64,000 nucleotides of DNA from positions 23,546 to 87,545 of the forward strand of contig DATAJX010000006.1 in the NCBI GenBank assembly GCA_036261915.1. The letters are read 5' to 3'. Under the pieces are notes generated by a model. It saw only the letters and a list, made by a program, of their open reading frames with translations, was not told the DNA's origin and made no database searches. Below are positions 3,506 through 63,123 of the stretch, in pieces; position 1 is the stretch's first letter; every line of letters begins with the position of its first letter. The translations under genes and the position numbers were made by a program. The DNA comes from Alphaproteobacteria bacterium. GTDB lineage: Bacteria > Pseudomonadota > Alphaproteobacteria > UBA2136 > UBA6156.

Positions 3506-6366
3506 TATTTTTTGCTCCTTCCATCAACAACATCGGGCTTGGGCGCGCTGCCGCCGGTCAGGCCGCGGAAGATCCCCTTCAGCAGCCCGGGCGTGATCAC
3601 GCTCAGCGGGCGCACGGTAATGTCCGGCGCGTCGGCGCTGCCCTTCAGTTTAAAGTCGGCCACCACCACGCCGTCCTGCCCGCCGGTCAGCAGCGTGCCC
3701 AGCAGCGGAATCTGCCCCACCAGCCGGTTGAACGGAATGGCAGGCGCCATCTGGCCGTCAATGTTCATGGTGCGGGTGGCGCGGTTATACACGCCGTTCA
3801 GCCGCAGGCTCATGCTCGGGCCTTCCATGGTCACGTTATCAATAAAGATGTTGTCGCCATCAAACCGCAGCGGAATGGCCGCATTGTCAAACAGCACGCT
3901 GTCGCCGCCGGCCAGCAGCTGGGTCAGGCTCAGCATGCCCAGCAGGCGCACCAGCACCGGCGGGTTGGCCAATTCAAACTTCCGCATCTGCAACACGCCC
4001 GAAGCCACGTCGGGCGAATCGTAGTTGATCTCGCCGAACACCTGCCCGCCGCGCAGGTCCTTATAGGCGCCAATGCCGCGCAGCAGCTTGCCCGCGTTAT
4101 CAATATTGATGGCCAGCTTGCGGCGGCCGTCGGCGCCCTTGCTGCTGATCACGTTCACCTGGTTGTTGCCGTCAACCTTGGCGGTAAAGGTGTTTATCTC
4201 CCAACGCCCGGCACGCGCCACAACCTCGGCGGTCAGGTTGCGCATGCTGGCCTCGCGGGTTTTCAGCTCTTCCAGCTTCACGCTCACGTTCATGTTCTTC
4301 ACCGTGCTTTCGCTGGTGCTGGTGCTGAACAGGTCGATGGCGCTCAGGTCCAGCTTTTTGCCGGTAATGCTCAGCGTGTCGCCGTTCATCTCCAGCTTGG
4401 CGCTGCTCGGCGCGGTCCACACCACCTGCCCTTTCAGGTTGGCGCCAAAGGTGGCCAGCGCATCGGCCAGGGTGGCTTCCAGGTTCTGGCCGCCCATTTG
4501 GCCCTTGGCTTTAATGGCCATCTTGTCGGCGCCGATTTTAAAATTCCCCTCGCTCACCTGCAGCGGCGGCAACGGCAGGTCTTCCACCTTGTCCAGGGTC
4601 ACGTCGCGAATGTTGCTGTCCACCGCCATCATCGCATCTTCCGGCGTCGTTTCCTTGCCGCGCACAAACGGCACGGTCACACTAATGCCCGTGCTGTGCG
4701 TGCCCGCGCTCACAACCGGCATGTCCTTTTTCAGCCAGCCGCCCAACCCTTTCAGCAGGGGGCTCAGCGGGCCGTTCACCGTGCCGCTCACGATCACGTC
4801 GGTGGGCCCGGGGGTGAACAGGTTGGTGATCTGTATCTCGGCGCCCTCCACGTTCTGCGGGCCGTTGGCGGCGGTGCCCATTTTGGTGGGGCCGATGTTG
4901 AACACCAGCGCATCGCCGCGCATTTCGCCGGTGCCGCTCACATCGCCCACAGGGCCCAGCGCGTCGGCAAAGGTGGCCTTGCCCTTCACAATGTTCAGCC
5001 GAAGCTTCAACCCGCAGGCGCTGCCGCAATACGGCATGTCGCCGGGGTGGCCGTTATAGTTCAGCACCAGGTTGGCATACCTGGCGTCGGCAATGTTCTT
5101 GCGCAAAAACGGCATGGCCACGTCCAGCCGCTTGTCGGGTAAAAAGTCGAAGATGCGCTGCGCATCGCCACCGGCGGTATAAGCCACAATGCTCACCAGC
5201 GGGCCCCTTCCATTCGTGGGGCCGGTCACCCCCTGCACCCAGCCCTTGGCATGAATGTTCTCGATGCCTTTGTACACCGCTTCCACGTCATGCAACGTCA
5301 GCAAATCGGTCGGGCTGGCCTGGTAACTGGCCGTCAACGTCAAGCGGTCGAACTTGATACTGTGGCTGAATTCCGAAGGCGGGGTAAAGGTAATGTCGCG
5401 CAACCGCAGCGTGATCCACGGCTGGCCCAGCCGGTTGTTGCGGTCAAGGGTGGTGCCCACCTCCACGTTGCCTTCGGCGCGCATCAGGTCGCTCACCGGC
5501 TTGGGCAGGTAGTCGGCGATCAGGTCCACGTCGGCGCTGCCAAAACGGGCGCGTATCTCGGCCGTGTCGGCGTCCTCGGCGTGGTCGAACGTCACCAGCA
5601 CCGGCAGGCGGCGTTCGTGGCCGTCGGCGGCACGGCGGCGCACTTCGGCCACCAAACTGCCGTGCTCGCCGCCGTCATCGGTCTTGCCTAAATCAACCGT
5701 GGCATCCTGCATGATCCAGTCGGTGTTCTGCACATTGTCGCGCAGCAGCAGAGTCAGGCCCGTCACCTTCACGCTGCTCAGCCAACCCCAGGTATCGTTG
5801 GCGCCCATGCCGTTCAAAAAGCCCACCACGCCCAAACCCTTACTGGGCTTGGCTGCCGCGCCGCCCACGTTCAACCCGGCAATGCTTATCTCATTCTCGT
5901 CGCGCACCACGCGCAAGGTCACGTTCTGGGCTTCCACCGTGCGTGGCGCGATCTTAAAGCGGAACAGCGAACTGCGCGAAAACCGCACCGCCGCCTGCTC
6001 GATCACCACCGCCAGCGTGCCGTCACCGCCGCGCAGGCGCAGGTCGCTGGCGCGCAGCACAATGCCCTTGTCGTAAAACATCTCCAGCCCGCTGGCGCTC
6101 AGCTTGGCGCCGTCGCCCAGCATCTTCTCGATGCTCGGCAGCCAGCCGCTCAGGCTCACGGGTTTGGTAATCGGGTGCGCCTGCTGAAGCCATAGCACAC
6201 CACCCACCACGCCGGTCACGATCACCAGCATCAGCAGCGCAAACACACGGCCGATCCACAGCATGCACACGTGCGGCACCAGCAGCGCCAGGTTGCGGCG
6301 CACGGGCTTGATAAGCTTCTGCTCGGCCAGCTTTTTGATCGGCTTGAGCGGGTTGTTAGTCTTCAC
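3505..6366 (-). CDS. Large AsmA-like / YhdP-like outer-membrane biogenesis family protein (N-terminal TM anchor, 953 aa)
   Basis: GTG start with GGGGAG 6 nt upstream. It has a single N-terminal TM helix followed by a long beta-rich periplasmic body, matching the architecture and size of AsmA-family proteins. Confidence 0.5.
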   Translation of the reverse strand: MKTNNPLKPIKKLAEQKLIKPVRRNLALLVPHVCMLWIGRVFALLMLVIVTGVVGGVLWLQQAHPITKPVSLSGWLPSIEKMLGDGAKLSASGLEMFYDKGIVLRASDLRLRGGDGTLAVVIEQAAVRFSRSSLFRFKIAPRTVEAQNVTLRVVRDENEISIAGLNVGGAAAKPSKGLGVVGFLNGMGANDTWGWLSSVKVTGLTLLLRDNVQNTDWIMQDATVDLGKTDDGGEHGSLVAEVRRRAADGHERRLPVLVTFDHAEDADTAEIRARFGSADVDLIADYLPKPVSDLMRAEGNVEVGTTLDRNNRLGQPWITLRLRDITFTPPSEFSHSIKFDRLTLTASYQASPTDLLTLHDVEAVYKGIENIHAKGWVQGVTGPTNGRGPLVSIVAYTAGGDAQRIFDFLPDKRLDVAMPFLRKNIADARYANLVLNYNGHPGDMPYCGSACGLKLRLNIVKGKATFADALGPVGDVSGTGEMRGDALVFNIGPTKMGTAANGPQNVEGAEIQITNLFTPGPTDVIVSGTVNGPLSPLLKGLGGWLKKDMPVVSAGTHSTGISVTVPFVRGKETTPEDAMMAVDSNIRDVTLDKVEDLPLPPLQVSEGNFKIGADKMAIKAKGQMGGQNLEATLADALATFGANLKGQVVWTAPSSAKLEMNGDTLSITGKKLDLSAIDLFSTSTSESTVKNMNVSVKLEELKTREASMRNLTAEVVARAGRWEINTFTAKVDGNNQVNVISSKGADGRRKLAINIDNAGKLLRGIGAYKDLRGGQVFGEINYDSPDVASGVLQMRKFELANPPVLVRLLGMLSLTQLLAGGDSVLFDNAAIPLRFDGDNIFIDNVTMEGPSMSLRLNGVYNRATRTMNIDGQMAPAIPFNRLVGQIPLLGTLLTGGQDGVVVADFKLKGSADAPDITVRPLSVITPGLLKGIFRGLTGGSAPKPDVVDGRSKK

Positions 6367-6382
6367 GCTGGCTCCCCACCAA

Positions 6383-6666
6383 GGCCTGATAAAGAAGGAT
6401 TTTTAGGTGTTTGTGGCCAGCCAAACGCCGAAGCGGAGCGTTCGGTTTGTGTTTTGGACGACGACGCGCAGCGGGACTGCGCGAGGAGGAGAAAACCGAA
6501 CCGGGCGGCATTTGGCTGAGCCACCCGAAGGGCACGGGCCAAAACGGCTCCCCGTACCGTCTTGTCGGGCTTATGCAGGCCATGCAGCACCGTGCCCTCC
6601 GCGCCGCCACGGGATAGCCGTTTATGGCCTCGTGCAAACATCCTAAAAATCCTTCTTTATCAGGCC
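6383..6666. repeat. ~31-bp inverted repeat pair (6383-6413 and 6635-6666) enclosing a ~220-bp structured intergenic segment
   Basis: ggcctgataaagaaggatttttaggtgtttg against caaacatcctaaaaatccttctttatcaggcc, which differ by one indel. The right copy encodes the prfB C-terminus (GLIKKDF*). Confidence 0.7.
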
Positions 6667-7753
6667 ATCGGCCAGTGCGGCACGAATGAACCGGTCGATC
6701 TTGCCGTCCAGCACACCGGTGGTGTCACTGGTTTCCTCGGCGGTGCGCAGGTCCTTCACCATCTGGTAGGGGTGCAGCACGTAACTGCGTATCTGGTGCC
6801 CCCAGCCGATGTCGGTCTTGGCGTCCTCCAGCGCGCTTTGCGCGGCCTCGCGCTTGCGCAGTTCAATGTCGTACAGCCGGGCCTTCAGCATGTTCATGGC
6901 AATTTCGCGGTTGCGGTGCTGGCTGCGGTCCTGCTGGCTGGCCGCCACGGTGTTGGTGGGGATGTGCGTGATGCGCACCGCGCTTTCCACCTTGTTCACG
7001 TTCTGGCCGCCGGGCCCGCTGGCGCGGTAGGTATCAATGCGCAGGTCGGCCGGGTTGATCTGGATGTCGATGTTGTCGTCCACTTCGGGGTAGGCGAACA
7101 CGCTGGCAAAGCTGGTGTGGCGGCGGGCGTTGCTGTCAAAGGGGCTGATGCGCACCAGCCGGTGCACGCCGCTTTCGGTCTTGCTCATGCCGTAGGCGTA
7201 ATCGCCCTGAATGAAGATGGTGGCGTTCTTGATGCCCGCCTGCTCGCCCTCGGCCTGGTCGATGATGCTCACCTTAAAACCCTGGCGCTCGGCCCAGCGC
7301 ATGTACATGCGCAGCAGCATGGCGGCCCAGTCGCAACTTTCGGTGCCGCCGGCCCCGGCGTGCACTTCAATAAAGGCGTTGTTGATGTCGGCCTCGCCGC
7401 CCAGCAAACACTGGGTTTCCAGTTTGTCGGCCTCTTCCAGCAAAGCCGAAAGCTCCTTCGCCCCCTCCTCAACGCTGGCGGCATCGTTCTCGGCTTCGCC
7501 CAGTTCCAGCAGCGTCACGGCGTCGTCCAGCTTGCGGCGCACGGCATCGTACTGCCCCAGCGTCACTTCAATGCGGCGTTTTTCCTGCATCACTTCTTTG
7601 GCGGCGGCAGGGTCGCTCCACAGGTCGGCGCTGGCGGCCCGGGTTTCCAATTCGGCTAAACGTTCACGCGCGGCGGCAGGGTCAAAGACGCCTCCCGAGC
7701 AGGTGTAAAACCTGCTCCACTTTTTCCACAATCTGCTTGTGTTCGGCCTGCAT
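6643..7753 (-). CDS. prfB: Peptide chain release factor 2, expressed through a programmed +1 ribosomal frameshift
   Basis: Frame 0 reads MQAEHKQIVEKVEQVLHLLGRRL, then CTT TGA C. After the +1 shift it continues DPAAARERLAELE... through the GGQ motif (RASGPGGQNVNKVESAVRITHIPT) to the stop at 6643. The ORF track shows only the downstream frame (6643..7731). Confidence 0.9.
7681..7687 (-). other. prfB +1 frameshift site CTT TGA C, with an upstream SD-like GGGAGG
   Basis: The minus strand reads ...CTC GGG AGG CGT CTT TGA C..., the canonical RF2 autoregulatory frameshift cassette. Confidence 0.85.
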
Positions 7754-7850: not shown

Positions 7851-8702
7851 CTAAGCCTGCGTGCGGCTTGCCTGCGTGCTGGCCCCGGCGGCCAGCTCGG
7901 CACCGGTCAGGCTGCCGTTGCCGTCGCTGTCAAGCCGGGCAAACAGGTCGGCCAGGCTTTGCGAATGGTTGCCATAACTGTCCAGCGCCAGCTTCTGCAT
8001 CACCGTATCGGTCACGGTGCCCCACGCCACCACCTTGCCGGTGGCAGCCTCGGTCAACGTAAAGGTCTGGCTTTCGCTAGCCTCAACCCCCACCCCGTCG
8101 CGGCCATCAAGCAAAGCACCAAATTCATCGACACTCAGGCTGCCGCTGCGGTCGCCGTCGGCGCTGTCGGCCATCATCTGCCAGGCGGCGTTCAGGCCCT
8201 TGCCCAAGGCCTTCTGCTCCTGCGTCATGGGGCCGGTCTGCTGGCCGCCGTTGTTGGTGGGCGGGCCTTCATTACCACCCAGCTGCGCAATCGCGGCCTG
8301 AAGGTCCGGCATCAGCACCATCCCGGCAGGCGCACCGGTAATAACGGCGGCCCCACCCTCGCCTTTCTTGGCAGCCTCTACGGCGGCCCGGCTGGCATCC
8401 ATGGCTTCCTGCCACTGGTCAACCACATAGCCTTTCAGCTCATCCAGCGACACCTTTCCGTCGCCATCAACGTCAGCCTTGGCAAACGCGTCGGCGGGCA
8501 TTTTCGCCGCACCGGGCTTCACCGGCATCAGCAAACTCAAGGCCCCGGCGGCGGCGGCAAATTCCTGCTGGTTCAGCTGGCCGTCGCCGTCCTTGTCGGC
8601 GTTCTTGATGATCTTCTCAAGCGCCTCGGTCAGGTTCGAAGGCTTCTTTTCAGTCTGCTGGGTGGGCGGCATCAAGCCGGTGCCGCTAACGCTTCCTACC
8701 AT
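7851..8702 (-). CDS. EF-hand calcium-binding domain protein (paralog 1)
   Basis: Three canonical EF-hand loops: DKDGDGQLNQQEF, DVDGDGKVSLDEL and DSDGNGSLTGAEL. No signal peptide. Confidence 0.75.
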   Translation of the reverse strand: MVGSVSGTGLMPPTQQTEKKPSNLTEALEKIIKNADKDGDGQLNQQEFAAAAGALSLLMPVKPGAAKMPADAFAKADVDGDGKVSLDELKGYVVDQWQEAMDASRAAVEAAKKGEGGAAVITGAPAGMVLMPDLQAAIAQLGGNEGPPTNNGGQQTGPMTQEQKALGKGLNAAWQMMADSADGDRSGSLSVDEFGALLDGRDGVGVEASESQTFTLTEAATGKVVAWGTVTDTVMQKLALDSYGNHSQSLADLFARLDSDGNGSLTGAELAAGASTQASRTQA

Positions 8703-8717
8703 GGCTATACTCTCCTT

Positions 8718-9461
8718 TTAGCCAACCGTAATGCCGCTACCGGCCGTAGCGCTGGCCGTCACGTCGGTGGCATTGGCGGCCTGCAACGCACTGGCAAATT
8801 CGGCTCCGCTGATCGAACCATCGCCGTCGCTGTCCAGCTTGTTGAACAACTGGGCCAACCCGTCGGTGCCATGCTTGCGGTGGTTGCCGTAGCTGCTCAG
8901 CGCGTTACTCAGGCGTACCAGGCTGCCCAGGGGCGCATCGCCATTGCCGCTGATCATGCTGCTGGTGCCGTCGGCGGCCGTGGTGCCGCTCACGGTCACG
9001 CCGTCCATGTGGGCGCCGTCGGTGCCGTAGGTGATGTGAAAAACGCTGACACTCAGCGTACTGCCCGGCGGCAGGCCGTTACCGGCAATTTTCTTATAAA
9101 TGTCGGCGGCCAGTTCGCCATCGCTTTTCTGGTCATAGTGGCCCTGCCCGCCGCTGCTGGCGCTTACTTTGTCGGCAAACAGGTTACCGGCAAACTGCTT
9201 GAACTCGGCCAGCGAGATCTGGCCGTCGCCGTCCTTGTCGATGCTCTTGAACAGGTCGCTGGTGTCGGTGCCGGCGCTGCCGCCACTGGCCTGCCCCATC
9301 AGGTCGCCAAACTCACCGGCATTGATGCTGCCGTTGCCGTCGGTATCGACCTTGGCGAACAACCCCTGCAGAAGCGCGGCCAACCCGCCCGACTGCTTAT
9401 CGACCTGGCTGCCTTGGCCCATTTGGCCGGTTTGGCAGGCCCAGCCCACATTCATACTCAT
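8718..9461 (-). CDS. EF-hand calcium-binding domain protein (paralog 2)
   Basis: EF loops DTDGNGSINAGEF, DKDGDGQISLAEF and DSDGDGSISGAEF. It shares the C-terminal SYGNH...LFxxLDSDGxGS module with the downstream gene, and the 15-bp gap suggests an operon. Confidence 0.75.
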   Translation of the reverse strand: MSMNVGWACQTGQMGQGSQVDKQSGGLAALLQGLFAKVDTDGNGSINAGEFGDLMGQASGGSAGTDTSDLFKSIDKDGDGQISLAEFKQFAGNLFADKVSASSGGQGHYDQKSDGELAADIYKKIAGNGLPPGSTLSVSVFHITYGTDGAHMDGVTVSGTTAADGTSSMISGNGDAPLGSLVRLSNALSSYGNHRKHGTDGLAQLFNKLDSDGDGSISGAEFASALQAANATDVTASATAGSGITVG

Positions 9462-28468: not shown

Positions 28469-28478
28469 GCCGCCATTT

Positions 28479-28506
28479 AAAAAGCCCCCGGCCGGGGGCT
28501 TTTTTA
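28479..28506. terminator. Bidirectional rho-independent terminator
   Basis: aaaagcccccggccgggggcttttttact, lying between two convergent genes. Confidence 0.75.
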
Positions 28507-31500
28507 CTGCGCGGCACGGCTGTACTTGGCGGGCTGGGCCGCAAAGGCGGCATATACATACGTGGCGCCACTGCCGTTATAGTCGCTGTTGGTGTTGCGT
28601 ATCTTGAACCCGTTTGAAACCACATCCAGGTCGGTGGCCGCATTACTGTTACTGGCCGATGTCAGGTTATAAAACACCTCGTTGCCGTCCGGGTTATACA
28701 GGTTGCGCGCGGTATCCAGCACAAACCAGTTGCCGGTGCTGTCGGTGCGCTTGATGATCACAAGCGCGGGTTTGAAACCCAGGTTCACATAAGCGCCGTC
28801 GGCACTACCGTTCCCGGTATAGGTTCCAAATTTGCTGAATCCCGGCACCTCGGCAAAGGCATAAACAACATAAGGCTGGCTGGCCAACACGCCGCCCCCG
28901 GCGGTCAGGCCCACATTGCTCGAGGTATGGCCCGAACCCCACATGGTCGAATACGTGGTCGCCGCCGCGGTGGTGTTCAGCGCCAGGTAGGCCGTGGTGT
29001 TGTTCGCCAGGTTCTGGTGCCACACATACCAGTGCGAAGCCGAACCGCTATACGTCCGGGCGATCACAAACGCCGGTACAACCCCCATGCCGTGCGCCGC
29101 GGTAAAAGCCCCCGATCCTGGCGCCGTACCGGTCAATATGTCCATGCCGGGCGTAACGCCCTTCTTAAACATGTGCGCCACATAAATGTTGCCGCTGGTG
29201 TTAAAGGCGCTGGCGCTGCCTACCGCAAAACCGTTGTTGTAAAAGGTTGCCAGCGATTGCGCATCGATGGTCTGCACCGCCGTGCCCGTGCTGTCCAGGT
29301 ACTTGGCGGGCCCGCGCGCACTGTCAAACCAGCCCCATGCGCCGGTGCTGGTATTATCCTTCAGCATCACCAGGTCGGGCTGGTAAGGGGTGTAGGTGGT
29401 CAGCGGCGTGTAGGTGATAACAATAAGCCCAGGGGCGCCCACACCCGCCGTGCTGCTGTTCGAACTACCGCCGCCGCCGCCGCCGTACAGGCCACCATTA
29501 CCCGCCGAATAACCGCTGCTGCCGCCCTGTTGCGAGCCGCCGCCGCCGCCCGAACCGTGCAGCGGGTCAAACTCCTGCCCGTTGCCACCGTTACCGCCCC
29601 TGCTGGCGCCGGCAGGATTGCCGCCGCCGCCGCCGCCGCCGCCCGATGACCCGAACAGCGAATAACCGTACCCGCCATGGGTATTGTTCACCGCCACGAT
29701 CCCACCGGTGCCGTTGACCAGCCCGCTGGCATTGGCCCCGCGCCCGCCAACGCCGCTGGTGGTGTTATTAGAGGGTCCCAATTGACCGGCTTCACCGCCG
29801 CCGCCGCCGCCGCCGCCCGGGCCGCGGTAGTTCACACCCGCGTTCGAGCCACCGGCCCCGCCATTGCCATAAGGTCCGGCCGCACCGCCGCCGCCGCCGC
29901 CCGCCTGGGTGCCGGTGGCGGGGCTCTGCCCGTTGCCACCGGCGCCGCCCGAATACTTGGTGGTACCGGTACCCGAGCCCGAAGCCCCGCCAGCCCCACC
30001 CGTGCCACCGCTGCCGCCGCTGCCGCCCTTGGCCCCCACGCTCGAAGCCGCCACGCTGGTGCCGTTGAACCACGTATCGCCGCCGGCGGTGCTGGCCGCA
30101 CCACCGCTCCCCACCTGGGTCTGCACGGTGGTGGTGGGCACCAGCGCCAGGTTCGATATCTTCGAGTACCCGCCGCCGCCGCCGCCGCCGTTGACCGAAG
30201 ACCCCGACGACGCCCCACCGCCGCCACCGATCACTTCAATGGTGTTGCTGGTGCTGTTCCAATCCAGCGGCACGCGCCACGAAGTCCCCCCGGTCAAAAA
30301 TATCTGCTTGGTCGTCGGCACGGTGGGCACATAGGTGATCACCACGATCCCCGGCGCCCCATTCCCCGGGTTTCCCTGGTTGGTGCTGGTATAACCGGCA
30401 CCGCCGCCGCCGCCGCCATACAGGCCGCCGTCACCACCACGGTAAATACTGCTTTCGCCGCCGCCGCCGCCGCCGCCCGCACCTGCACCACCCCACTCAA
30501 TGCCGTCGCCCCCCTTGCTCCCCAAACCGTGGGCACTGCTCACGCCGCCGCCGCCGCCTGCGCCAAAGGCCCCGGCGGTCGAATCCACACTGGCCGTCGC
30601 CGCACCGCCGCCGCCGCCGCCAAAGCGGTTAGCACCACCGGCACCGCCGGTGGTGCTCGTACCGTTACCTCCAACCGAACCGCCATTAGCTCCACCGCCA
30701 CCACCCGAACCTGCACTACCGGCCGAACTCATATCGCCACCATTGGCGCCATTACCGTTGGGCCCGGCGGCGCCACCGCCACCGGGGCCGCTCACATAGC
30801 CCGAGCCACCACCCGAATTCCCGCCGCTATACGCATAAGGCGCACCGGGGTTGGTGGTGCCGCCACCCGCACCGCCGCGCGCGCTCGAAGCCGCCCCGCC
30901 GGTCCCGCCGCTGCCGCTGGTGCCGCCGGTGCCGCCCTTGGCACCCACGCTCGCCACCGCCAGCGAAGCCCCGTTGAACCACGTATCGCCACCGGCACTC
31001 CCCGCCCCGCTGGTGGCCGGGGTGGCGGCCACACCGCCCATGCCCACATTGTAGCTGATGCTTGCCCCAATGGTCAGCGTCACACTGGTGGCCTTGGCAT
31101 AGCCGCCGCCGCCGCCGCTCCCGGCATAGGTGGTGCCGCCACCGGCCCCAAAACCGCCGCCGCCGCCAGCCCCGATCACTTCAATGGTGTTATCGCCGCT
31201 CCAGTCACTGGGCACGGTCCAGGTGGTGCCGCTGGTCAAAAACACCGTCTTGGTGGGCAACGGCCCAGGCAAGGTAACAACCTGGGTACCGCCCGTGCCG
31301 CGGTACAGCACCGGCTGGAAGTAAAGCGAAGGGCTCACCACCGCAGGTGTCGCCGTGTTGTAGGTGTTCAGCGCCGCAAACCCCGCCGGGGGGGTGGCAG
31401 CAAAAGCTCTCTGACCAAAGTTGAACGAGGCCGTTTGGGTGGAACCTTGGTTATTGCCTATGGCCGCCACCCAAGCCAGCCCCGCCGTAGCAGTGGCCGC

Positions 31501-32928
31501 CGGGCTGGTGCCGGTGGCAGGGTTCGAACTCCCCAGCCACGTCCCGTTCTTCGAGAAATAAAGCTTACCCGTGTCGGCGTCAAAGGCCACGCCAACCACA
31601 TCGTTAATGGCAATCGTCACACCATAGCTGGTAATGGCCGAACCGTTATTATACACTTGCCCCGCACTGTTTATCCCATAGCCATAAGTATTATTGTAGC
31701 CGGGGTAATAGCTCGCGGGCATGTTCTGCTGCTGGATACCCGCCGTCCCCACCAAACTGCCGGTCCATACAAACTCCCAGTACCATTTGCCACTCGTCAT
31801 CAACTGGTTGGCCTTCACAACGCTGTTGGTGGCAAACGGCACCGAAACGTCCATATTCGCCGCCGACAAGGTCGAGCCGGTCGGGTCCAGAAAATTGAAT
31901 GCAGGGTCATTCCCGCGCCCATTGTCGCCGTTGTCGGCCAACGTGGGGTGGTCTTCGGTAGGGTCATAGGTCACGCCGGTGGTCACGCTAAAGTTATTGG
32001 GCGTCCAGTTGTTGCCCTTACCGCTCACGTCCTTGCCCAGCGTGGTGGCGGTGTTGTTCAGGTAATTTTCAAAATCAAGATGGAATCCGTTGGTGCCATA
32101 AGCGCCGGTATAGGTTTTCGGCACCCACATGCCGTTGCTGTCAATCTCGGCAAAAGCGCTGGGGTCCAGGGCCAGGCCGTCCACAAAATTGATGTCGGCC
32201 ATCACGCCGTCAAAATACTGGGTGGAAGAACCCGCCGTGTTCAGGTAAGCGCCGATCCCGTTATAGCCGGACCGGTTGAAGTACGAAGTGGTGCTGTTCG
32301 CCACCGAGCCCGAACCGATCACCTGGCGCTGGCCGTTAACGTATATCCGCACGTTATCGGCGGTGGTGCCGTTGGCGGTGTCCCATACAAACACAATGTG
32401 GTACCAGGCCGTGGGGTCGCGGTACACGCCCGCGCTGGTGGCGGCATTGGCTGAGTTGGCATAAAAGATCAGCTGGTCGCTCGTATTGAAATCAACCTCG
32501 GTCGTCTGCCCCGACCCCACGATCTGGCTGAACAGGGTCTGCGTGGTTCCCATCTTCCCGCGCTTGACCCACATGCTCATGGTCCAGGTGGTCAGGTTCC
32601 CGTTGCCGGCGGGTGAGCGGCTCAGGTACGCCGAACTCGCGCTCCTGAACCGCAACGCCCCGCCGCTGCACTTGCCGTTGGTAACACCCGGAATGGTACT
32701 CGAAAGGAACGAACCCGCCGAGTTCTTCCACTCATAGCTATACTTCGTGGGCACCATCAGGCTCTTGCCGCTGGCATGGTTATTGGCGATCAGGCGGCAA
32801 CTGCCGAACTCATTGATGCCAAGCCCCTCGCCGTTCGGAATGGTGTAACTCACGTTGGTCTGCGCCATGGCATTGCCGCCCAGCAGCAACCCCAGCAGCA
32901 TCAGCAAAAACAACATCGCCCGGCGCAT
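28504..32928 (-). CDS. Giant secreted multidomain fibre-like protein (LamG-like + SPRY-like + 2x glycine-rich domain + duplicated C-terminal domain)
   Basis: 1474 aa with a signal peptide (AMA|QTN).
- aa ~100-240: LamG/ConA-like pattern (W.H..FVWD...VRIYVNG).
- aa ~380-500: SPRY-like pattern (KWYWEFVW...GDVVGVAFDADTGKLYFSKNG).
- aa 562-866 and 876-1173: two copies of a W.VP...IEVIG-GGGGG...APG(I/L)(V/I)VITY glycine-rich domain.
- C-terminal domain carrying a twice-repeated KP.LV.IK...STG.W..D.AR motif. Confidence 0.8.
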   Translation of the reverse strand: MRRAMLFLLMLLGLLLGGNAMAQTNVSYTIPNGEGLGINEFGSCRLIANNHASGKSLMVPTKYSYEWKNSAGSFLSSTIPGVTNGKCSGGALRFRSASSAYLSRSPAGNGNLTTWTMSMWVKRGKMGTTQTLFSQIVGSGQTTEVDFNTSDQLIFYANSANAATSAGVYRDPTAWYHIVFVWDTANGTTADNVRIYVNGQRQVIGSGSVANSTTSYFNRSGYNGIGAYLNTAGSSTQYFDGVMADINFVDGLALDPSAFAEIDSNGMWVPKTYTGAYGTNGFHLDFENYLNNTATTLGKDVSGKGNNWTPNNFSVTTGVTYDPTEDHPTLADNGDNGRGNDPAFNFLDPTGSTLSAANMDVSVPFATNSVVKANQLMTSGKWYWEFVWTGSLVGTAGIQQQNMPASYYPGYNNTYGYGINSAGQVYNNGSAITSYGVTIAINDVVGVAFDADTGKLYFSKNGTWLGSSNPATGTSPAATATAGLAWVAAIGNNQGSTQTASFNFGQRAFAATPPAGFAALNTYNTATPAVVSPSLYFQPVLYRGTGGTQVVTLPGPLPTKTVFLTSGTTWTVPSDWSGDNTIEVIGAGGGGGFGAGGGTTYAGSGGGGGYAKATSVTLTIGASISYNVGMGGVAATPATSGAGSAGGDTWFNGASLAVASVGAKGGTGGTSGSGGTGGAASSARGGAGGGTTNPGAPYAYSGGNSGGGSGYVSGPGGGGAAGPNGNGANGGDMSSAGSAGSGGGGGANGGSVGGNGTSTTGGAGGANRFGGGGGGAATASVDSTAGAFGAGGGGGVSSAHGLGSKGGDGIEWGGAGAGGGGGGGESSIYRGGDGGLYGGGGGGAGYTSTNQGNPGNGAPGIVVITYVPTVPTTKQIFLTGGTSWRVPLDWNSTSNTIEVIGGGGGASSGSSVNGGGGGGGYSKISNLALVPTTTVQTQVGSGGAASTAGGDTWFNGTSVAASSVGAKGGSGGSGGTGGAGGASGSGTGTTKYSGGAGGNGQSPATGTQAGGGGGGAAGPYGNGGAGGSNAGVNYRGPGGGGGGGGEAGQLGPSNNTTSGVGGRGANASGLVNGTGGIVAVNNTHGGYGYSLFGSSGGGGGGGGNPAGASRGGNGGNGQEFDPLHGSGGGGGSQQGGSSGYSAGNGGLYGGGGGGSSNSSTAGVGAPGLIVITYTPLTTYTPYQPDLVMLKDNTSTGAWGWFDSARGPAKYLDSTGTAVQTIDAQSLATFYNNGFAVGSASAFNTSGNIYVAHMFKKGVTPGMDILTGTAPGSGAFTAAHGMGVVPAFVIARTYSGSASHWYVWHQNLANNTTAYLALNTTAAATTYSTMWGSGHTSSNVGLTAGGGVLASQPYVVYAFAEVPGFSKFGTYTGNGSADGAYVNLGFKPALVIIKRTDSTGNWFVLDTARNLYNPDGNEVFYNLTSASNSNAATDLDVVSNGFKIRNTNSDYNGSGATYVYAAFAAQPAKYSRAAQ

Positions 32929-32932
32929 GGGC

Positions 32933-33952
32933 TCAGCGCCCTGCTTGCTTGGCCCGCAGTTCGTCCACTTCGCGGCGCAGGTCGTCGATTTGTTTTTGTT
33001 GGATCTTCACAGCCTCGATCAACGGCGCGATCAGCTGGTCGCTGTCCACCACCATGGTGGTGCTGCCGCCGCCGTGCACAGCCTCGGGCATCACCTTCTG
33101 TACATCCTGTGCGATCACCCCGTACGAGGGTCGGCCGTCCTTCTTCCAGGTAAAGTGCACGCCGTTCAGGCTTTTCACCAATCCCATGGCGTCGGCCACC
33201 GGCACAATATTGTCTTTCAATCGGCGGTCCGAACTGTGCAAATAGGCAACCGCCGTCATATTGCCGCTGGCGCTCACGTCACCGGCCACCTCAAGCTTGC
33301 TGGCCGGCGAGGTTACACCCAAACCCACATTCCCGGCGCTCGTAATCCCCAGGCGCGCACCCTGCCACGCACCGGCAATATAATTGCCCACCATATACAT
33401 CCCGCTGCTGTCATAACCGGTGGCCCACAACGGCGTGGTGTTGCTGGTAAAACGTATGTAGTTCCAGCTACCGGTGCCCGACCGCGACAATGTCATGGTA
33501 TTATCAAGGCCCGACAGCACATAAAGCGGCACCGTCGTGGTGGCGGCAGCCCCAATCCCCACATTACCGCTCGAATAAAACCCGGTGGCCGAAACCACAC
33601 CAGTGGCACTCACCCCCGGTCCCACAAAGCCCAACGTAGGGTGAATGTAAGCAGCCCCCGCCGTACCCGCCAATGTAAAGCTCACAGTGCCCCTGTCGGC
33701 CACCACCATGCCCAGGTTGGCGCCGCTGGAAACGTTGGTGGTGCTGATGCGGTCACCCGCGCCCCCACCGTTGGTGAACACAATGCCGTTCACCGCCAGG
33801 TTGGTGGTCGATACGTACAAAAAGTGCCCATACGTCCCGCTCACCACCCCGGCCACGCTGGTACTTACCAGCGGCGCATTGTTCATCTGCGCCATCACGC
33901 CGCCCGGCAGCAGTAGGGCGCAAACAAGCAAAAGCAGGCGTAATGTTTTCAT
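32933..33952 (-). CDS. Secreted phage-tail-fibre-like protein with a C-terminal S74 intramolecular chaperone autoprocessing domain
   Basis: Signal peptide (VMA|QMNN). Tail-fibre repeats (GNVGIG...TT, GNVGLGVTSPASKLEVAGDV). The C-terminus YLHSSDRRLKDNIVPV...GLVKSLNGVHFTWK...LIAPLIEAVKIQQKQIDDLRREVDELR matches the Ser-Lys dyad chaperone-of-endosialidase domain. Lies 4 nt downstream-adjacent to the giant gene. Confidence 0.8.
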   Translation of the reverse strand: MKTLRLLLLVCALLLPGGVMAQMNNAPLVSTSVAGVVSGTYGHFLYVSTTNLAVNGIVFTNGGGAGDRISTTNVSSGANLGMVVADRGTVSFTLAGTAGAAYIHPTLGFVGPGVSATGVVSATGFYSSGNVGIGAAATTTVPLYVLSGLDNTMTLSRSGTGSWNYIRFTSNTTPLWATGYDSSGMYMVGNYIAGAWQGARLGITSAGNVGLGVTSPASKLEVAGDVSASGNMTAVAYLHSSDRRLKDNIVPVADAMGLVKSLNGVHFTWKKDGRPSYGVIAQDVQKVMPEAVHGGGSTTMVVDSDQLIAPLIEAVKIQQKQIDDLRREVDELRAKQAGR

Positions 33953-34151
33953 CTTCTTGAACCCACATTAACGGCTCATCTTTTCCGCGCAACGCCCGAG
34001 TAAGCAAAACGCCGACATTTCCGCCCAAAAAATGAGCCAAACCTCATTAAAAAAACAACACTTTACAACAGTAAAACAACAGCCACGCATCACCTCCGCA
34101 TCATTTGCGCACGCCCCTTGCGCCCCCGCCCCTGCCTGCTAGCATGTTGGC

Positions 34152-62837: not shown

Positions 62838-63123
62838 GATGACCCTATCTAAGGCCTTTTTGTTGAACTGCGCCGCTAACCGGCTGGATGATAAAATTTG
62901 ACGCGACACGCGCCGTGGTGCGGGCCCTACCATAAGCGGGGCGCGGCAATATTTTAGCGCCCGCAGGTTGCGGCCCTTTGGGTTGTGCCCCAATGGCCAT
63001 CCGGCTGCGCTTTGTCGCCCTTGCGATGTCCCGCATCGCAGCGGCCTCCTCATCGCGACCGGACGCTGCGCTATGGCCATTGGCGCTCAACGCAGTCAGC
63101 AAAAAGGCCTTAGATAGGGTCAT
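62838..63123. repeat. ~33-bp inverted repeat pair (62838-62872 and 63091-63123) spanning the whole anmK-hydrolase intergenic region
   Basis: atgaccctatctaaggcctttttgttgaactgcg against cgcagtcagcaaaaaggccttagatagggtcat. The left copy abuts the hydrolase start codon and RBS; the right copy contains the anmK stop codon. Confidence 0.7.

Follow-up and report, generated by a model that had tools for sequence, protein, structure and literature searches.

A 64,000-nt stretch of an alphaproteobacterial genome (Alphaproteobacteria bacterium, GenBank assembly GCA_036261915.1, contig DATAJX010000006.1, positions 23,546 to 87,545 of the forward strand; this whole stretch is called the window) carries, in the end of the release factor 2 (RF2) gene prfB, a 284-bp non-coding DNA element that is bounded by a closing stem and folds into a Y. 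The best reading of this element, E1, is a structure-defined mobile palindrome resembling a MITE (miniature inverted-repeat transposable element). With a probability of roughly two in three, E1 is one copy of a small, ~284-bp non-coding family of mobile or formerly mobile DNA that is defined by its fold rather than by its sequence. By sequence comparison, E1 and two further copies, E2 in the same genome and E3 in a related metagenomic species, form a family in which fold and length are conserved despite ~50% sequence divergence and whose members occur in both orientations.

Inverted repeat and fold of E1

The perfect outer arms of E1 (6383-6407 and 6642-6666) are 25 nt long, 100% complementary and separated by a spacer of 234 nt. 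Once A6641 is allowed to bulge, the pairing reaches 30 bp (6383-6412 with 6636-6666), which agrees with the 31-bp arms described in the initial annotation of this DNA. When searched with up to 3 mismatches, the 22-nt arm core (6386-6407) was found at only two sites in the 64 kb, namely in the two arms, and at none in 100 dinucleotide shuffles, and the inverted repeat is therefore beyond chance. The arms have a G+C content of 40%, compared with 62% for the window. RNA folding of 6375-6675 gave -171.8 kcal/mol (z = -10.8) for the minus strand and -156.9 kcal/mol (z = -10.4) for the plus strand, and the fold of the E1 segment against shuffles lies at z about -10.5; the ~30-bp stem that had been proposed for a read-through transcript, and the hairpin-rich interior, are both confirmed by the fold. 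Two Logan contigs, assembled independently (run SRR12773038), are 100% identical to the window across E1 and E2, so neither element is an assembly artefact. A scan of 6100-7000 for sigma-70 promoters and intrinsic terminators found none above expectation and none inside E1. The parts of E1 and the adjoining host features are as follows, in the order of the minus strand.

6383-6666, minus strand: E1, 284 bp, bounded by the inverted repeat; family orientation is minus, the sense strand of prfB and yhdP
6642-6666, minus strand: closing stem P1, 5' strand, perfect 25-nt outer arm; also encodes GLIKKDF and the TAG stop (6666-6643)
6636-6641, minus strand: inner extension of P1, 5' strand (from the fold); contains the bulged A6641, with GA kept in all three copies (alignment columns 25-26)
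6532-6635, minus strand: hairpin P2, 104 nt, family positions 32-135 (from the fold)
6525-6531, minus strand: junction mini-hairpin CC-UUC-GG, inside the conserved block GCCCUUCGGGU (from the fold)
6413-6524, minus strand: hairpin P3, 112 nt, family positions 143-254, the best-conserved domain (from the fold and the alignment)
6408-6412, minus strand: inner extension of P1, 3' strand (from the fold)
6383-6407, minus strand: P1, 3' strand, perfect 25-nt outer arm (from the inverted-repeat scan)
6356-6382, minus strand: relic of the old prfB tail, TTG GTG GGG AGC CAG CGT GAA GAC TAA, reading LVGSQRED and stop; no longer translated in prfB
6364-6377, minus strand: Shine-Dalgarno sequence (GGGGAG, 6377-6372) and start (GTG, 6366-6364) of yhdP (asmA-like), 16 nt downstream of E1

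Insertion of E1 into prfB

In the window, prfB (7731-6643, plus an upstream frameshifted start) is followed by a YhdP/AsmA-like gene (yhdP, 6366-3505), both on the minus strand. The encoded RF2 ends in ...FIRAALADGLIKKDF, and its last seven codons and stop (GLIKKDF, 6666-6643, minus strand) lie in the right arm of E1, as the initial annotation had recognized. RF2 orthologues (68-89% identity) end in ...ALA[DEAQS][KR]VG[NS].R.. and none ends in GLIKKDF; the tails in relatives read ...ALADKVGSKRED, KVGSKRED, KVGNKREE and KVGNKRDEA. Excision of exactly 6383-6666 rejoins prfB in frame with the relic listed above, as ...ALAD-LVGSQRED and stop. In three related lineages prfB abuts or overlaps yhdP without any element:

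L005 (GCA_964601735.1), prfB-yhdP junction: overlap TAATG
L006/L007 (JGI), prfB-yhdP junction: TAA ATG
L043 (Logan), prfB-yhdP junction: overlap ATGA

Because these junctions are empty and exact deletion restores both the frame and an orthologue-like tail, E1 is placed as an insertion in prfB. Judged from these alignments, the 284-bp element was inserted 25 nt upstream of the original prfB stop, and the original nine-codon tail was cut off, with seven element-encoded codons and a stop in its place. One arm had been taken for a copy of the prfB 3' end; given the different ends of the orthologues, the old tail at 6356-6382 and the empty junctions of the relatives, this relation has to be reversed. 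Both arms came with the element, and prfB therefore borrows its last seven codons from one of them.

On the other side, 5-6 nt separate the left arm from the GGGGAG Shine-Dalgarno sequence of yhdP, in keeping with the closeness to the yhdP ribosome-binding site noted previously. The GTG start of yhdP is also called in a Logan contig. The YhdP-like open reading frame (ORF; segment 6306-6366, minus strand) has ~20 N-terminal residues more than its relatives; their start corresponds, in the alignment, to an internal GTG near 6306. The yhdP start is thus either 6366 or about 6306, and in the latter case E1 would lie ~76 nt upstream of it instead of 16. At the other end of prfB, the programmed +1 frameshift site of RF2, CTT TGA C (7687-7681; within 7681-7700, minus strand), is preceded by a Shine-Dalgarno-like GGGAGG, and the NCBI protein (P0001) joins both RF2 frames across this site. 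Upstream of prfB are two adjoining genes for EF-hand calcium-binding proteins (283 and 247 aa; 7851-9461, minus strand), an arrangement that is kept in L005 and L006.

Two further copies and their sites

E2 came to light when the whole window was scanned for inverted repeats, and E3 lies in contigs of a related metagenomic species.

62839-63123, plus strand (family orientation): E2, 285 bp, antisense to the flanking anmK and ydjM; second member of the family
L036 8625-8908 (also in L035 and L037-L042): E3, 284 bp, between ruvA and an MBL-fold hydrolase gene

The arms of the E2 inverted repeat measure 28 nt, with 96% complementarity and a spacing of 229 nt, and E2 folds into the same Y (z = -7.2). 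Global alignment of E1 (minus strand) with E2 (plus strand) scored z = 9.5 over dinucleotide shuffles, compared with z = 3.0 when the relative orientation was reversed. With a covariance model made from E1 alone, the scores were 118 bits for E2 (plus strand; E about 1e-26) and 86.6 bits for E3. The initial annotation had held that a lack of other copies, combined with arms not conserved in related genomes and no discrete transcript, would speak for a chance duplication; on the first of these points the outcome was the opposite, with two further homologous copies recovered.

E2 takes up all of the space from the anmK stop (63122-63120) to the ydjM ATG (62837-62835): the anmK TGA occupies arm positions 2-4, and the ydjM ATG begins 1 nt past the other arm. 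In two pairs of related contigs (L024/L025 and L044/L045) this junction holds an unrelated spacer of 37-40 nt, and anmK ends at the same codon position in all of them. The spacer of these relatives (L024 1380-1419; L044 3823-3859) contains 3-4 copies of a CACCTG-like motif, e.g. TGACCTGTCACCTGCCACCTGAAACCTGTCACCTGTC. Up to the bulged A, P1 of E2 is 3 bp longer than in E1 and E3; because of this, and because exact excision of the E2 repeat would fuse its neighbours, the outermost 3-4 bp of the repeat (ATGA/TCAT) are probably host sequence. An intron was rejected as an identity for the element, since precise removal of E2 would fuse two genes.

E3 occurs in 9 JGI samples (Ga05010xx series), and its DNA, read from 8 contigs, is identical in all of them; the same sample series also holds relatives with empty E1 and E2 sites. 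Empty sites in relatives are documented for E1 and E2 only. E3 has the same fold as E1, the ruvA TGA lies 1 nt before it and the next ATG lies 2 nt after it. Just downstream of E3, genes for the MBL-fold hydrolase and a 157-aa GIY-YIG nuclease lie between ruvA and ruvB (L035 411-1603, equivalent to L038 4095-5287). This pair could be an inserted cassette; homologues of the two genes were searched for in the window by tblastn and none was found.

All three copies thus sit between co-directional genes, at different junctions and in two related species. E1 is in sense orientation to its neighbour genes, and E2 and E3 are antisense to theirs. In each case the upstream stop and the downstream start lie at the base of P1 or within 16 nt of it. 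In E2 and E3 a purine-rich stretch, possibly the Shine-Dalgarno sequence of the downstream gene, sits within the 3' arm.

Spurious ORFs have been called on two of the copies, one of 92 aa on E2 (62845-63123, minus strand) and one of 94 aa on E3 (P0242). A search of the E2 ORF against 1.84 billion protein representatives returned one 94-aa ORF at 51% identity, which is the one on E3, and otherwise low-complexity proteins. On the sense strand of E2 and E3, a GAGGAGG is followed 8 nt on by an ATG; a real small protein was nevertheless rejected, as it is not kept in E1, the composition is that of a spurious G+C-rich ORF, and the ATG lies in the apical stem of P3.

Shared architecture and covariation

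The copies share a common plan of 284-285 bp, made up of a ~30-bp P1, two hairpins of ~100-110 nt (P2 and P3) and a tiny hairpin at the junction; each copy is a nested palindrome, and either of its strands can adopt the Y. The domain coordinates of E1 (minus strand) and E2 (plus strand), each numbered from its own first position, agree within 1-2 nt:

P1 closing stem: E1 1-31 and 255-284; E2 1-33 and 254-285
P2 hairpin: E1 32-135; E2 34-136
Mini-hairpin: E1 CC-UUC-GG, 136-142; E2 CC-UUU-GG, 137-143
P3 hairpin: E1 143-254; E2 144-253
P3 apical loop: E1 192-194; E2 192-194

The mini-hairpin is at the same position in all copies (CCUUUGG in E2, CCGAAGG in E3), and the P3 apex loop GUCCCGC is common to E1 and E2. 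Pairwise identity is 51% for E1/E2, 47% for E1/E3 and 62% for E2/E3. Folding with comparative covariation, which had been named earlier as a check, supports the shared fold: in a model-guided alignment of the three copies, standard pairs occupy 92.3% of pair cells, compared with 38-44% when partners are slid by 1-3 columns, and 55 of the 110 pairs are changed on both sides and 6 on one side alone (23 of the double changes fall in P2 helices 2 and 3 together), figures that come from three sequences in a structure-fitted alignment, each sequence being palindromic by itself. Few of the pairs are G-U (5/110 and 7/111), and the two strands are about equal in how well they fold.

Conservation is uneven along the element. 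The perfect outer stems measure 25, 24 and 25 bp in E1, E2 and E3, and every copy has a run of five or six T at positions 16-23 followed by the conserved GA with its A bulged. Otherwise the outer 12-17 bp of the arms are unrelated between copies (by inspection, the termini read GGCCTGAT, ATGACCCT and GAGCTTAT), and the internal hairpins are the conserved part.

Searches for relatives and a mobilizing enzyme

The E1-E3 family could not be assigned to any described repeat or RNA family. At gathering thresholds, no Rfam 15 family matched anywhere in the window, and permissive scanning of the three copies gave chance-level hits only (E of at least 0.58, under half of the gathering score). A hammerhead or other small ribozyme was rejected for lack of an Rfam signal, and a search for tRNA and tmRNA genes found none. 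Six-frame translations of E1 had no match at E <= 10 among 5.8 billion proteins. The literature searched held no description of a Y-shaped ~284-bp repeat.

Further copies were sought at several levels. The arm 20-mer gave four single matches in 185,579 GTDB representative genomes, all attributed to chance and lying in A+T-rich genomes, where they encode D-K-E-G-F-L-G, and the two-arm pattern gave 0 matches in JGI metagenomes. A three-block pattern of conserved motifs gave 0 matches in viral contigs and 9 in metagenomes, none of them with flanking inverted repeats and so chance matches; of two looser two-block patterns run on viral contigs, one gave 14 matches, judged to be chance, and the other 0. 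No match was obtained by blastn of E1, E2 and E3 against plasmids or of E1 against phages. Over ~250 kb of fetched loci, neither two covariance models (R1 and R2) nor a generic inverted-repeat scan detected a fourth copy.

The check for enzymes covered 30 ORFs between 12 and 54 kb of the window, by Pfam, together with the Pfam labels of overlapping contigs. No RAYT gene was found among the ORFs checked, within the 64 kb and ~9 kb more of the source genome; the checked parts of the window likewise contained no insertion sequence. A GGCC target duplication at E1 was considered and rejected, as keeping one copy breaks the frame, and the idea that an outer arm is a copy of the target was dropped, the hints at E1 and E3 being too weak. 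Elsewhere in the window, a 1500-aa ORF adjoins a 344-aa ORF with a Peptidase_S74 (endosialidase chaperone) domain (28504-33967, minus strand), a combination typical of phage tail-fibre-like or large surface proteins, and a terminator-like palindrome lies at 28474-28509.

Proposed mechanism and alternative explanations

The family may be mobilized in trans, by an enzyme whose recognition depends on folded DNA (a hairpin or cruciform) and not on a conserved terminal sequence, since the outer ~17 bp differ between copies, a target duplication is lacking and pairing is near-pure Watson-Crick on both strands. If the arms converted one another while in a hairpin intermediate, a change on one side would become a change on both. 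In the mRNA, P1 would loop the element out, so that the stop codon of the upstream gene would meet the start codon of the downstream gene at the foot of the stem, where a terminating ribosome could melt P1 and free the ribosome-binding site of the next gene. Insertions at cistron junctions would be tolerated because P1 juxtaposes stop and start codons. By analogy with the Neisseria Correia elements, the 25-30 bp RNA duplex in a read-through transcript would be a plausible RNase III substrate. Tentatively, and with low confidence, these features can be taken together as an undescribed class of mobile DNA, with a fixed-length (~284 bp) Y fold, a structure-specific enzyme cutting folded single-stranded or cruciform DNA, insertion without target duplication at cistron junctions, a closing stem that makes the insertion harmless by re-joining stop and start in the mRNA, and arms that co-evolve by conversion when folded, with perfect pairing maintained as the copies drift to ~50% identity.

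Several observations weigh against a mobile family. Pattern scans of GTDB representatives and JGI metagenomes gave no further copy, so that copy number and current mobility are unproven; the known copies number only three, two of them from ~73 kb of source-genome sequence and one from ~50 kb of relatives. An identity of only 51%, as between the two copies in one genome, would be unusual in a transposon family that was active recently. The window ORFs checked include no transposase, integrase, HUH enzyme, reverse transcriptase or invertase, and no direct repeat (target-site duplication) flanks E1, E2 or E3. Exact excision of E1 gives the best fit but leaves Leu where orthologues have Lys or Arg, so that the boundary is uncertain, and at E2 a cut at the exact ends of the inverted repeat would produce a fusion of anmK and ydjM. 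Translational coupling and RNase III cleavage are both purely inferential.

The main rival, which we consider unlikely, is that the element is not selfish DNA and is instead a selected cis-acting module of the intercistronic mRNA, serving processing, stability or enforced coupling. Strong compensatory covariation and a length kept over ~50% divergence would fit such a module, as would the placing of each of the three copies precisely between genes of the same direction, where the stop and start codons lie at the foot of P1, and the lack of a predicted terminator or promoter inside E1. A strand-specific RNA function would differ between copies, however, as E1 is sense and E2 and E3 are antisense, and the rarity of G-U pairs (same counts as above), with equal folding of both strands, points to a constraint at the level of DNA or of both strands. 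Orthologous junctions in relatives work without the element, and E1 damaged a conserved protein tail. Less probable again is a standard MITE belonging to a DDE transposase family, which would have lost its target duplication and would have terminal repeats from different subfamilies. Perfect terminal inverted repeats of 24-25 bp, small size, A+T-richer ends, the lack of coding capacity and insertion polymorphism between species are all in its favour, and direct repeats fade over time according to a review (PMC10969869). Yet direct repeats are missing from the ends of E1, E2 and E3 alike while their arms remain perfect, which means that the copies have not decayed; the terminal 12-17 bp, the usual place of transposase binding, are unrelated between copies of the same genome, the internal hairpins are the conserved part, and the arm 20-mer has only its four chance coding matches in the GTDB representatives.

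An invertible DNA switch, in which a site-specific recombinase flips the segment between the inverted repeats, was among the roles first suggested and is now very improbable. The 25-bp inverted repeats do flank ~234 bp, and family members occur in both orientations relative to their neighbours, but there is no recombinase gene among the window ORFs checked, no promoter is predicted inside, and inversion would have little effect, the interior being palindromic in itself. A single orientation is seen in the independent assemblies (window and Logan contigs), E3 does not vary in orientation or sequence across 8 contigs that come from different samples, and no invertase was found nearby. Next to no weight is left for the reading given in the initial annotation, a local inverted duplication of the prfB 3' end, or for a chance palindrome, both already refuted. 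One arm does coincide with the present prfB 3' end, GGCCTGATAAAG of the arm resembles the adjoining host GGCCGAT, and GATAAAG is found at the same place in a relative; against this, GLIKKDF is not how the orthologues end, the old tail is found past the opposite arm, two unrelated loci carry homologous elements whose arms differ, and chance gave 0 of 100 shuffles. Of the roles listed in that annotation, a MITE is the nearest, though not as a remnant, since all three copies are full length (284-285 bp) with the fold intact.

If E1-E3 are indeed structure-defined mobile palindromes, a structurally distinct type would be added to the short list of small non-autonomous bacterial elements. An element defined by fold and length would escape repeat finders and BLAST; linking the three copies took an inverted-repeat scan, a covariance model and a search with a spurious ORF. 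E1 would then be a clean natural case in which the C-terminal tail of an essential gene product (RF2) has been replaced by element-encoded residues. Operon junctions would be split by a ~284-nt structure without obvious loss of the downstream gene, which suggests structure-mediated translational coupling as a possible mechanism. The hypothetical ORFs of 92-94 aa annotated on such elements would also be accounted for.

Comparison with known systems

In the attC sites of integrons, sequence is poorly conserved and the folded palindrome is conserved, an unpaired base marks the strand, and the site stands directly after the stop codon of a gene; the sites are 57-141 nt long, have RYYYAAC ... GTTRRRY core sites and lie in cassette arrays beside intI. 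By analogy, the A bulged after 25 bp of P1 is kept in all three copies of the present family. Unlike attC sites, the termini of E1-E3 do not match the core sites in that order (by eye); GTTGAAC or GTTGAGC is found only internally in the 5' arm of E2 and E3, in the wrong order (by inspection). No integrase or cassette array was found in the parts of the window checked, the flanks being housekeeping genes. A T or Y fold in which the ends pair and two internal palindromes branch is also known from the inverted terminal repeat of parvoviruses (adeno-associated virus) and from the msr-msd of retrons, where the a1/a2 repeats close the structure. The likeness of E1-E3 to these is one of shape only, as size and context differ; no Rep or reverse-transcriptase gene stands beside any copy, the neighbours being prfB/yhdP, anmK/ydjM and ruvA/MBL-fold hydrolase.

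The Caulobacter CIR is, like the present family, an alphaproteobacterial intergenic repeat, with an RNA model of two long arms and a linker and a mode of mobility given as unknown (PMC2229807). The CIR is ~110 bp long and highly conserved between species, with exposed GANTC sites and no closing stem. It was ruled out as an identity for E1-E3, which contain no GANTC, are 284-285 bp long and are closed by P1. E1-E3 resemble REPIN/REP-BIME sequences (RAYT, HUH Y1) in being palindromic and non-coding, in lacking a target duplication and in a hairpin-based identity, and P2 and P3 are each about the length of a REPIN. Repetitive extragenic palindromic (REP) sequences are built on conserved units of 20-40 nt, most with GTAG or CGTC heads (PMC3733652). 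No conserved REP unit stands out in the three-copy alignment, in which the GTAG/CGTC tag was checked by eye only; CGTC is present in P3 of E1 and not at the matching place in E2 (by eye). REPs are extragenic and abundant, whereas E1 is intragenic and the family has an extra closing stem and a fixed three-domain plan.

E1-E3 share small size, lack of coding capacity and terminal inverted repeats with the stem-loop MITEs (Neisseria Correia/NEMIS, enterobacterial ERIC/IRU and Rickettsia RPE). Stem-loop MITEs are co-transcribed with neighbour genes as stable hairpins, and RPE and ERIC can insert in gene ends and donate codons or stops (PMC2229807, PMC10969869). The same sources document in-frame intragenic insertions of bacterial MITEs, and cleavage by RNase III of the stem formed by the terminal repeats of Correia elements (PMC2229807, PMC10969869). 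Stem-loop MITEs are shorter than 200 bp, form a single hairpin, have conserved termini (often TA) and a target duplication, and are highly similar within a genome; E1-E3 differ in being 284-285 bp long and Y-shaped with two long internal hairpins, in having variable termini and no target duplication, and in an identity of ~50%. Of the features that define a MITE, terminal inverted repeats and a small, non-coding body are thus present, and a target-site duplication and conserved termini are absent; copy abundance is 2 copies per ~73 kb of the source genome, only 51% identical. In its working, the family is most like the stem-loop MITEs, that is, the Correia, ERIC and RPE elements.

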